A stretch of DNA of 61,137 nt from the sequence record KJ909655.1. One strand, 5' to 3'. Position 1 is the first letter of the stretch; each line of letters starts with the position of its first letter. The position numbers are program-made. This document shows, piece by piece, positions 48,001 to 51,000 of this stretch. The DNA comes from Escherichia Stx1-converting recombinant phage HUN/2013.

Positions 48001-51000
48001 AAGTCCGGAGCGCACTGAAACAGAAACTTCGCCATAACCTGGAAGCGCGTCTTGATGCAGAAGTGGATGCCATTCTGGATGAACTGCTTGGTGTACAGGC
48101 AGAGCCACCGACTGAAGCGGGAGATACCACCGCAGAGAGCGGTGAAGTTCAGCCTGAATCACCGGTCGCCGATGCGACTGAACCTCAACCCGAATCGGTC
48201 ATGATGCTGTAACGGGGAGTCAGGGCCATCAGTAAACAGCTGCTGGCCTTTTTCATGTTGTGAGCTTCCGGATTGCGGGAGACGGGGTATGTACCAGATG
48301 GAAAAAATCACAACAGGTGTGTCATACACCACGTCAGCGGTGGGAACGGGCTACTGGTTCCTGCAGTTGCTGGACAGGGTTTCCCCGTCTCAGTGGGCGG
48401 CAATAGGCGTGCTGGGGAGTCTGCTGTTTGGGCTGCTGACATATCTGACGAACCTGTATTTCAAGATTAAAGAAGACCGGCGTAAGGCGGCACGGGGAGA
48501 GTAAGCTGATGAGCAGGAAACTCCGCTATGGTTTATCGGCTGCCGTTCTGGCGCTGATTGCCGCAGGTGCTTCTGCGCCTGAAATCCTCGACCAGTTTCT
48601 GGATGAAAAGGAAGGTAACCACACCACAGCATACCGTGATGGTGCGGGTATCTGGACCATCTGCCGTGGAGCCACCCGGGTGGATGGTAAGCCTGTTATT
48701 CCTGGCATGAAGCTGTCGAAGGAAAAATGCGACCGGGTTAACGCCATTGAGCGTGATAAGGCGCTGGCATGGGTGGAGAAAAACATCAAAGTGCCGCTGA
48801 CCGAACCCCAGAAAGCGGGGATCGCGTCATTCTGTCCGTACAACATTGGTCCCGGTAAGTGTTTCCCGTCGACGTTTTACAGACGAATTAATGCAGGTGA
48901 TCGAAAAGGTGCCTGCGAAGCTATTCGCTGGTGGATTAAGGACGGTGGCAGAGACTGCCGTATTCGTTCAAACAACTGTTACGGTCAGGTATCCCGTCGT
49001 GACCAGGAGAGCGCGCTGGCGTGCTGGGGAATCGACAGATAAGAAGAATATTTTGCTGAAAAATGAGGTTTGCTTACATGGACGGATAACACGAAATCCT
49101 GCAAATTGGCAAAATGTAAGTGAATAAAGTCAAAACAGTTGTTTAACACTCAGGCACCGTAATGATGCCTTTGTCATTTCTGCGCATCTCACGCGCATCT
49201 CACAACACAGAACCTTTCAGGATGACCCTTGAGGATACCGGTTTGGCTGTCGGTGCCTTTCTGTGGGCTGGATTCCTGTGAGACAAGGTTCATCACTAAA
49301 AGGAAATAACCGATGAATATGATGGCCGTGCCGTTTCACGGCAACTCTCTTTATGTAGTTAACCATAATGGCGAACCATACGTTCCCATGAAACCTGTCG
49401 TTGCGGGGATGGGGCTGGCCTGGCAATCACAGTTGGCTAAGTTAAGACAGCGTTTTGCGTCAACTATAACGGAAATCGTTATGGTTGCTGAGGATGGGAA
49501 ACAACGCAATATGGTGTCCATGCCACTTCGAAAACTTGCCGGCTGGCTACAAACCATTAATCCCAACAAAGTAAAACCCGAAATCCGCGATAAGGTCATC
49601 CGGTATCAGGAAGAGTGCGACGATGTTCTTTACGAGTACTGGACGAAGGGTTTTGTCGTTAATCCCCGTAAAATGAGCGTGATGGAAGAACTCAACCAGG
49701 CTTGTGCTGACATGAAACGGGATAAAAACATTGCCAGTGTGTTTGCTACCGGGCTGAATGAGTGGAAACAGGTTAAAGCCGCGCATGTATCAAAAATCCG
49801 TACGCTGGTAAATGAAGCGAATATGCTGATTGATTTTGTCCTGGCTGATACAGGCAAAGGGAAAATAACAAAGGCGGATTGATGGGGTGGCTAATGATAT
49901 CAGATAAACTCATAACGCTGGTGAAGAGCCTCTGTGTACTTGTCGGCATTTCATTTTTAGTCATGCTGGTTGCCATTTTCTTTTCCACCGCCTGGCGAGT
50001 CCTGACGTTATCGGGACTGGTGGGGTGAAAGAGAGATGAACCGTGTTCTGTGTGTGGTGATTATTGTCCTGGCGGTTGGCTATGGTGCGCTGTGGCTGGC
50101 AACAAACCATTACCGTGACAACGCGCTCACCTACAAAGCGCAGCGCGATAAAAAAGCCAGAGAGCTGGAACAGGCGAATGCCACCATTACTGACATGCAG
50201 GTGCGCCAGCGTGATGTTGCTGCGCTCGATGCAAAATACTCGAGGGAGTTAGCCGATGCGAGAGCTGAAAATGAAACTCTGCGTGCTGATGTTGCCGCTG
50301 GTCGTAAGCGCCTGCGGATCAACGCCACCTGCTCCGGTACCGTGCGTGAAGCCACCGGCACCTCCGGCGTGGATAATGCAACCGGCCCCCGACTGGCAGA
50401 CACCGCTGAACGGGATTATTTCATCCTCAGAGAGAGGCTGATCACTATGCAAAAACAACTGGAAGGAACCCAGAAGTATATTAATGAGCAGTGCAGATAG
50501 AGTTGCCCATATCGATGGGCAACTCATGCAATTATTGTGAGCAATACACCCGCGCTTCCAGCGGAGTATAAATGCCTAAAGTAATAAAACCGAGCAATCC
50601 ATTTACGAATGTTTGCTGGGTTTCTGTTTTAACAACATTTTCTGTGCCGCCACAAATTTTGGCTGCATCGACAGTTTTCTTCTGCCCAATTCCAGAAACG
50701 AAGAAATGATGGGTGATGGTTTCCTTTGGTGCTACTGCTGTCTGTTTGTTTTGAACAGTAAACGTCTGTTGAGCACATCCTGTAATAAGCAGGGCCAGCG
50801 CAGTAGCGAGTAGCATTTTTTTCATGGTGTTATTCCCGATGCTTTTTGAAGTTCGCAGAATCGTATGTGTAGAAAATTAAACAAACCCTAAACAATGAGT
50901 TGAAATTTCATATTGTTAATATTTATTAATGTATGTCAGGTGCGATGAATCGTCATTGTATTCCCGGATTAACTATGTCCACAGCCCTGACGGGGAACTT

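Follow-up and report, generated by a model that had tools for sequence, protein, structure and literature searches.

A conserved structured leader ahead of ant and a putative small membrane-protein gene in the lysis cassette of Stx1-converting phage HUN/2013

What lies between the endolysin gene R and the spanin gene Rz in the lysis cassette of a Shiga toxin (Stx) phage? The question is raised by Escherichia Stx1-converting recombinant phage HUN/2013 (KJ909655.1), an Stx-converting lambdoid phage of which 61,137 nucleotides (nt) were analysed here; this whole stretch is called the window, and all coordinates refer to it. An earlier note on this DNA had marked, in the R–Rz interval, a Bro-N/Ant-type gene (ant), an 11-bp direct repeat upstream of it, and an unannotated 48-codon hydrophobic open reading frame (ORF) that could be a lysis modulator or a spurious frame. 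The best explanation, considered rather probable when taken as a whole, is that the region is a phage-21-type lysis cassette (S, R, Rz/Rz1) holding two separate items, namely a cargo insertion and a native small membrane-protein gene. From its sequence the stretch at about 49129-49882 reads as the inserted cargo cassette, made up of a weak terminator-like hairpin, a structured leader of about 135 nt and ant. The features concerned are as follows.

49043..49128, + strand: AT-rich spacer after R (G+C 0.337), also present in ant-less relatives by alignment with ETEC6 and H-19B
49120..49146, + strand: remnant of a 70–72-residue small membrane ORF (phrog_6632), GTG AAT AAA ... TAA, encoding MNKVKTVV and a stop, from alignment with ant-less cassettes
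49153..49179, + strand: weak terminator-like hairpin GGCACC-GTAAT-GATGCC with a T-rich tail, the 5' edge of the inserted cassette, read from the sequence
49178..49312, + strand: conserved structured leader, type A, about 135 nt, consisting of P0, a C/A-rich linker and a long irregular hairpin (covariance model R1, 144.5 bits; minimum-free-energy (MFE) and alignment folds; covariation)
49182-49196, + strand: hairpin P0 (GCGC, loop AUCUCAC, GCGC), from its pairs and compensatory variants
49212-49231 with 49284-49304: helix P1 of the leader
49232-49235 with 49274-49277: helix P2
49238-49244 with 49265-49271: helix P3
49245-49247 with 49255-49257: helix P4
49313..49882, + strand: ant, a cargo protein of 189 amino acids (aa) with P22_AR_N and ORF11CD3 (ORF call, Pfam)
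49882..50028, + strand: small membrane-protein ORF, 48 aa from its first ATG, with a conserved 44-aa core MISDKLITL...SGLVG from 49894 (ORF call)

The extent of the insertion was established by comparison with two ant-less relatives, the ETEC6 prophage and H-19B. Homology runs from R through the AT-rich spacer to GTGAATAAA (49120-49128) and is then lost; in the relatives this sequence is the start of a 70-aa ORF, and in the window a stop follows after eight codons. Since homology ends at 49128 and the start of the 70-aa ORF is cut off after eight codons, the inserted unit, from about 49129 to the ant stop, has taken the place of the first small ORF. The G+C content of ant is 0.463, compared with 0.54 for R and Rz.

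The leader in front of ant has a general order that recurs among its relatives: a terminator-like hairpin with a T tail, a gap of about 10–15 nt, P0, the C/A-rich linker, the P1–P4 hairpin and, about 8 nt further on, the ATG. The Shine-Dalgarno (SD) sequence AAAGGA (49299-49304) is paired within P1 to ACCUUU (49212-49217); more generally the 5' base of P1 is CCUUU (ACCUG in type C), paired to the SD core AAAGG (CAGGU in type C). In alignment A5, 92.3% of cells form a standard pair, against 34–45% when the 3' partners are slid by one to three columns, and changes on both sides are seen in 22 of 36 pairs, where shuffling gives a mean of 9.1. None of 500 shuffles reached the observed paired fraction, the number of both-side changes or the covariation score. 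Pairs 44-48 with 154-160 of A5 place the SD inside the helix, and the MFE folds of types A–D agree. The compensatory differences among types A' (GGGUGA with UCACC, in Pantoea and Erwinia), B, C, D and E are hard to explain other than by conserved pairing, and the G-U pairs lie on the sense strand. In types A–D the predicted pairing of the SD at 37 °C is 87% or more, and partition-function folding gives an unpaired probability of 0.13 or less at 20–37 °C. Because leader variants differ by insertions and deletions of 1–2 nt, a coding function of the leader is ruled out. A 39-aa ORF at 49162-49281 (vBEcoSP32_53 in KU238068; AKI86034.1 in KP682372) was considered as a leader peptide and discarded as spurious, given the same 1–2-nt differences and a stop codon that is not conserved.

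The element is not confined to ant. From the first base of the repeat through the ant start codon (49182-49318) there is 85–93% identity to sequence lying immediately upstream of very different genes, including KilA-N genes after Rz/Rz1 in P22-like Salmonella phages, in a Klebsiella phage a 'DNA binding protein' gene of the tail region, and the HNH endonuclease gene of phage ECP1. A pattern scan found the leader in at least 120 IMG/VR contig stretches, and scanning one genome per species placed type A in nine further genera of Enterobacterales (Raoultella, Entomohabitans, Pantoea, Erwinia, Tatumella, Siccibacter, Pseudocitrobacter, Serratia and Enterobacter). The covariance model built from type A recovers types B–E, in which the architecture is kept and the helix sequences differ. 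Cargo genes of at least 9 unrelated families stand directly behind the leader in phages of Enterobacterales, among them KilA-N, ANT/KilAC, Phage_pRha+ORF11CD3, KilA-N+P63C, HNH_3, AntA, TerB and, in the window, P22_AR_N+ORF11CD3, at a nearly constant distance from leader to start codon. Just upstream, a terminator-like hairpin with a T tail occurs in 87 of 92 distinct leader contexts, compared with 46 of 600 random segments, and upstream ORFs are co-directional in 83 of 91 contexts. No Rfam 15 family was found on the leader when the whole window was searched at gathering score; a search of 49040-49340 by E-value returned two chance-level matches only (E 4 and 6.4), and the leaders of five compared loci (L005, L006, L007, L010 and L140) had no match. 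The leader would appear to be a widespread structured RNA that is apparently uncatalogued.

Some phage segments carry two leader-and-cargo cassettes, as in L140 (3515-3648 and 4842-4974), L005 (1396-1535 and 2764-2906) and L021 (2341-2471 and 2653-2791), those of L021 being about 180 nt apart. Related Stx phages have a type E leader before a gene for a 143-aa TerB-domain protein, about 5 kb upstream of the lysis cassette (L043 3271-3403; L088 9813-9945, minus strand; L044 9586-9718), and in L017 (2118-2250) and L034 (9323-9455) the type E leader is followed by a disrupted TerB-type reading frame. The window has no type E/TerB copy, nor was a second leader copy found in it with search filters off.

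A diverged copy of the leader also precedes the classical rha gene of P22. In that genome (L153, NC_002371; 39504-39645) the annotated GTG start of rha/orf201 at 39575 falls inside the structured leader, and an SD-like AAGAAGG with an ATG at 39645 (MNELIANHDFDF...) matches the pattern of the other cargo genes, so that the first 23 annotated residues are probably not translated. A passage in PMC4936722, citing Henthorn & Friedman 1995, describes rha of P22 and phi80 as harmful to phage growth in the absence of integration host factor (IHF) and as IHF-regulated. Since P22 rha carries the leader, the leader is a candidate site for this control.

At the 5' end of the leader lies the 11-bp repeat. 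Tandem Repeats Finder (TRF) bears out this part of the earlier description, with GCGCATCTCAC present twice at 49182-49203 and 100% matches. Exact tandem duplications with a unit of 8–15 nt number three in the whole window, and a unit of 11 occurs solely at this position; being so rare, the repeat is not a trivial chance match. The second half-copy is limited to the window type and, in part and imperfectly (GCGCATCTCACGCGCATTTC), the Klebsiella type, most variants reading GCGCTTCACACGCGCGACTTC or GCGCTTCGCACAAGCGTAAAT instead, whereas the P0 stem varies in a compensatory manner (UGCGU/ACGCA, CGCUU/AAGCG, GCGCC/GGCGC). Comparison of the variants shows the conserved feature to be the P0 hairpin (GCGC-N7-GCGC) and not the direct repeat. 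A protein-binding repeat, either an operator or an iteron, for which a mobility-shift assay had been proposed, is a poor candidate and highly improbable: the rarity of an exact 2 × 11 bp repeat and the imperfect second copy retained by some relatives, such as the Klebsiella phage, would favour it, but the direct repeat is missing from most leader variants and the hairpin, with its compensatory stem changes, is found in all. Between P0 and P1, in the linker that is predicted to be single-stranded, 49201-49207 reads CACAACA, a 7-mer expected by chance several times per 61 kb; Tree et al. 2014 (PMC4104026) quote the same sequence as the consensus targeted by the R1 seed of GcvB.

How might such a leader act? 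No sigma-70-like promoter was found in 49043-49312 by a consensus scan. As no promoter was found and a terminator lies upstream, ant may be transcribed solely within the Q-antiterminated late transcript. Translation of ant would then be kept low by the SD hairpin until the hairpin is opened or cut. Because the SD stays paired at all modelled temperatures an active opener would be needed, and candidates are a protein factor, processing by RNase III or RNase E, and ribosomes on standby at the C/A-rich linker. Many DNA-binding cargo genes, P22 rha among them, would in this way be interchangeable behind one and the same leader. It is proposed, tentatively and as a possibility, that the terminator, P0 and the SD-sequestering hairpin constitute an undescribed portable regulatory RNA module, a cassette system of lambdoid and P22-like phages of Enterobacterales in which accessory genes that are not related to each other (Ant, KilA-N, Rha, AntA, HNH, TerB) replace one another behind a single post-transcriptional switch, and that this module is also the site of IHF-dependent rha control in P22 and phi80. 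Several points weigh against this account of the leader as a whole. The covariance model used to fit alignment A5 imposed a similar structure, and the pair counts are biased towards it. The window copy, at -40.6 kcal/mol, is no more stable than dinucleotide shuffles (z = -0.18), and folding stability is therefore no argument for the leader. Most type A copies are 85–95% identical, so their conservation could largely stem from recent spread. That a promoter is absent is deduced from a simple consensus scan only; what would open the hairpin comes down to the candidates named above; and no data on transcription, processing or translation of the leader were found. A literature search on ant in the lysis cassette, ECs1214 and the EcOnc small RNAs (sRNAs) likewise yielded nothing on the leader.

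The same hairpin could mainly serve RNA processing or stability, with RNase III or RNase E cutting the long helix of the late polycistronic transcript and thereby either freeing the SD or leaving a protective 5' hairpin on the cargo mRNA. This explanation, which is on the doubtful side, overlaps with the proposed switch and differs only in the purpose given to the hairpin. The long irregular helix of about 35 paired positions with conserved internal loops, its placement inside co-directional operons and the pairing of the SD at every modelled temperature would all suit a processing element, but the constant spacing of about 8 nt from SD to ATG and the pairing of the SD itself suggest that translation is the controlled step, and E. 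coli RNase III has no sequence signature that could be looked for. A role as DNA, whether as a recombination junction or hairpin site for swapping cargo in the manner of integron attC or as a site bound by a host protein, for instance IHF, would account for the exchange of unrelated cargo families exactly at the 3' end of the element, for the tandem cassettes of L140, L021 and L005, and for the IHF regulation described for rha in the passage cited above. It is nevertheless unlikely: pairing is preserved by compensatory changes, the G-U pairs of the sense strand would turn into C-A mismatches in the opposite strand, what is paired is the SD of the gene that follows, at a distance from the ATG that does not vary, no integrase or recombinase is associated with the element, and no IHF consensus is recognisable by eye. 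Less probable again is an RNA thermometer by which the SD would be exposed at the body temperature of the host. The A-U-rich base of P1, with conserved mismatches and a bulge beside the SD, would suit one, and a known thermoregulator, that of lambda cIII, lies elsewhere in the window, but the predicted unpaired fraction of the SD in the window copy rises only from 0.04 at 30 °C to 0.17 at 42 °C and is 0.13 or less in types B–D; partition-function folding in silico at 20–45 °C gave no sharp opening, and the thermometer was rejected. Two further candidates were also dropped. Pairing of the leader with the phage's own c4-like or isrK RNAs, suggested by the analogy of c4 and ant in P1, gave duplex energies equal to those of shuffles, and GGA motifs of the CsrA type, judged by eye, are lacking in type B leaders.

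The second item in the interval is the small ORF at 49882..50028. It was confirmed as 48 codons long and hydrophobic (top 19-residue Kyte-Doolittle mean 2.82), with a first ATG that overlaps the ant stop as TGATG; a conserved ATG lies 11 nt past the ant stop, and its own stop is 7 nt before the Rz ATG. It is the second ATG, at 49894, that forms the conserved start, and not the one over the ant stop as had been supposed: the related locus L005 has an in-frame TAG after the first ATG, and other relatives begin MSDKL behind a different upstream gene. The description of the peptide as unannotated holds for the GenBank phage records that were inspected, and not for RefSeq (PGAP), which has it at the same position as hypothetical protein WP_000539792.1, for PHROG phrog_4906 ('unknown function'; E 1.3e-27), or for the ribosome profiling (RIBOseq) catalogue of Hucker et al. 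2017 (PMC5597208), where it is XECs191 with the listed sequence MMGWLMISDK...GLVG. That catalogue predicts an inner-membrane protein with one transmembrane helix, gives the classifier verdict 'real', and reports for growth in LB 30.0 reads per kilobase per million (RPKM) for RNA and 12.6 for RIBOseq, a ribosomal coverage value (RCV) of 0.43 and a coverage of 0.55. A published translation signal thus exists, although a weak one. The family comprises 53 clusters among about 5.8 billion proteins, all named hypothetical and without a Pfam domain, except that one 80-aa cluster has an ORF11CD3 match, as expected of read-through from ant.

The fetched loci include 12 nucleotide versions that differ from one another, with identity as low as 73%, and the frame is open in every one. 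In the 25 pairs that have diverged most, with synonymous divergence (dS) of 0.49–0.78, the Nei-Gojobori ratio of nonsynonymous to synonymous change (dN/dS) is 0.24–0.47; the median over all 55 pairs with dS>0.1 is 0.42, and synonymous changes are enriched (Fisher p 4e-4 to 7e-3). To judge from these comparisons, the ORF is under purifying selection and is a genuine gene for a single-pass membrane protein. Its native setting is seen in the ant-less cassettes. In the ETEC6 prophage the order is R, the 70-aa ORF (MNKSK..., phrog_6632), a 43-aa homologue of the small ORF (MSDKLITPAKV...), a 51-aa ORF, a 28-aa ORF and Rz, and all of the small ORFs are hydrophobic and abut or overlap; in H-19B a 72-aa ORF alone stands between R and Rz. 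A homologue also occurs behind a different cargo gene, for a 231-aa ANT-domain protein, and before three different downstream sequences. The presence of the homologue in ant-less cassettes, together with its varying neighbours, indicates that the small ORF is a resident of the R–Rz interval, and it cannot be regarded as part of the ant insertion. More widely, the R–Rz interval of ant-less phage-21-type cassettes contains a row of one to four small hydrophobic ORFs, abutting one another and belonging to phrog_6632, 4906 and 1115/3246/4493 (ETEC6, L133 1341-1904; H-19B, L135 1641-1859). The 51-aa and 28-aa ORFs of ETEC6 match the same PHROGs and look like paralogues.

The other option left by the earlier note, a spurious frame, loses ground in the light of the 12 open versions, the dN/dS values and the published RIBOseq data. 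In its wider form, this alternative would make the peptide sequence immaterial, the frame being either spurious or a mere relay that passes ribosomes from ant to Rz by translational coupling. The overlap of the first ATG with the ant stop, the 7-nt gap to Rz and the weak RIBOseq signal all agree with this alternative, as does the antisense strand, where a 71-aa ORF (49773-49988, minus strand) runs across the small ORF and is likewise open in all 12 versions; it is not taken as a gene, open antisense frames being common opposite hydrophobic coding sequence. Against it are the excess of synonymous change, the conserved N-terminus MISDKLIT and C-terminus W..SxGLxG with conservative replacements in the hydrophobic core between them, and the occurrence of the ORF in ant-less cassettes and beside different neighbours, which together make this alternative improbable.

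If the small ORF is a membrane-protein gene of the cassette, its product would be co-translated with the lysis genes, and may, from the inner membrane, influence when or how efficiently the pinholin, the signal-anchor-release (SAR) endolysin or the spanin brings about lysis. Here too there are points on the other side. A lysis role is deduced from position and from the tight spacing with neighbouring genes; the product has no Pfam match (holin families, DUF2730, Rz and Rz1 included), its sole match being phrog_4906; all clusters that have a source name come from E. coli or Stx phage; and the XECs191 signal, besides being weak, was measured without induction, in a strain whose prophages include several near-identical copies. 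The literature search on ant in the lysis cassette, ECs1214 and EcOnc sRNAs found nothing on what the peptide does. No homologue is available in E. coli K-12, since rrrQ and rzpQ of its Qin prophage adjoin each other without intervening small ORFs.

As for ant, its position in the R–Rz interval and its Ant-type character were correctly given, on the strength of a P22_AR_N match (PF10547, E 1.4e-45, residues 5-113), while the Bro-N assignment was not sustained, neither Bro-N nor P22_AR_C being matched in Pfam at E<=0.01. The product matches phrog_524 over profile positions 7-210 of 317, and in its domain content it corresponds to no more than half of a P22 Ant. The gene is not new: in the records of 933W, VT2-Sakai, the Stx1 phage, BP-4795, phage 7888 and others it has long been labelled Ant or antirepressor, and Ant has been counted in 126 Stx phage genomes (PMC8136144). 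The note 'regulation of host cell lysis' attached to it in AP005153 is an annotation and not a test; the literature search found no experiment on the role of ant within the lysis cassette, and none on ant binding or inactivating a phage repressor. Twelve nt into ant, at 49325-49342, is a 6-bp G+C-rich hairpin, GCCGTG-CCGTTT-CACGGC, with a T-rich run that was flagged as terminator-like by the scan.

The surrounding cassette is of ordinary make, its remaining genes being the following.

48289..48504, + strand: S, phage-21-type class II holin (Pfam Phage_holin_2_1, E 7.2e-33)
48509..49042, + strand: R, phage lysozyme (Pfam Phage_lysozyme)
50036..50500, + strand: Rz, i-spanin, starting 7 nt past the small-ORF stop (Pfam Phage_lysis, E 1.4e-49)
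50256..50441, + strand: Rz1, o-spanin lipoprotein, inside Rz (Pfam Rz1, E 7.3e-22)

From its Gly/Ala-rich hydrophobic N-terminus, MSRKLRYGLSAAVLALIAAGASA, R is read as a SAR-type endolysin, and the endolysins of Stx phages have been described as R21-like SAR endolysins (PMC8136144). The gene bor lies downstream of the cassette on the opposite strand. The stretch 48980-50100 is 100% identical in VT2-Sakai, in the Stx1-converting phage AP005153 and in many further Stx phages, and is present, at least partly, in 2078 of 5426 complete E. coli genomes. Elsewhere in the window, Rfam matches above gathering score include STnc100 (45207-45416), upstream of a gene for a 648-aa esterase-like protein; a cluster of c4-a1b1, isrK and C4 antisense RNA (40390-40588); the lambda cIII thermoregulator (31122-31180, minus strand); the sok antitoxin (19932-20106, minus strand); and sRNA-Xcc1 (22728-22816, minus strand).

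Much of what first drew attention to this locus is therefore ordinary, as ant has long been annotated and the small ORF is already held by RefSeq, PHROGs and a published RIBOseq catalogue; the present study contributes the leader family and shows where the small ORF belongs. The leader precedes a class of potentially toxic DNA-binding accessory genes in enterobacterial prophages, with P22 rha among them, and if it does control translation of its cargo, this would explain how such genes are tolerated inside late operons and would provide a concrete target for the old puzzle of rha and IHF. In the phage-21-type cassettes, which most Stx phages use, the interval from the SAR endolysin gene to the spanin genes encodes one to four small, conserved membrane peptides, a set that is under-described and is left out of the current description of the cassette as holin, endolysin and spanin. 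Since release of Stx depends on this cassette, a modulator of lysis timing would be of practical interest.

The nearest relatives of the two items are known ones. The ant genes of 933W, VT2-Sakai and the Stx1-converting phage occupy the same R–Rz position, with identity of 100% (VT2-Sakai, Stx1-converting phage) or 99.9% (933W), and XECs191, WP_000539792.1 and phrog_4906 are the same protein as that of the small ORF, called hypothetical or of unknown function by all three sources, none of which places it within an array of small membrane ORFs between R and Rz. With P22 Ant the window protein shares the N-terminal P22_AR_N domain and possibly also post-transcriptional control at the ribosome-binding site, sar being annotated as an antisense RNA regulator in P22. 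However, P22 ant (15091-15993) encodes 300 aa and not 189, the C-terminus in the window is ORF11CD3, and, unlike in P22 immI, arc, mnt and sar are not adjacent to ant, for which a cis-acting hairpin rather than an antisense RNA would exert the control. For the small peptide the closest precedent is the releasin gp25 of Mu, likewise a small membrane protein, whose gene lies no more than a few genes past that of a SAR endolysin (PMC9239132). The Mu protein has 99 aa, with a 73-aa cytoplasmic domain and DUF2730, whereas the ORF in the window has 44–48 aa, amounts essentially to one transmembrane helix and has no Pfam match, and its phage also has a pinholin.

A moron, in the sense of Juhala and Hendrix, is an extra gene with its own promoter and terminator, lying between genes that are adjacent in relatives. 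The ant unit is similar to the morons of lambdoid phages in being an extra gene, of deviating base composition and within a late operon, that is missing from the close relatives ETEC6 and H-19B. It differs in that no promoter was found for it, in that its terminator-like hairpins lie solely upstream of, or inside, the unit rather than downstream, and in the conserved structured leader that it has in common with unrelated cargo genes. With no promoter or downstream terminator found, and the small ORF coming directly after ant, it was not accepted as a true moron. The leader itself most resembles known SD-sequestering leaders, such as the lambda cIII element, fourU and translational operators, in which an upstream pyrimidine stretch is also paired to the SD directly 5' of the start codon; it differs from them in its far longer hairpin, for which no thermal opening is predicted, in having no match in Rfam 15, and in being tied to interchangeable cargo genes and an upstream terminator.

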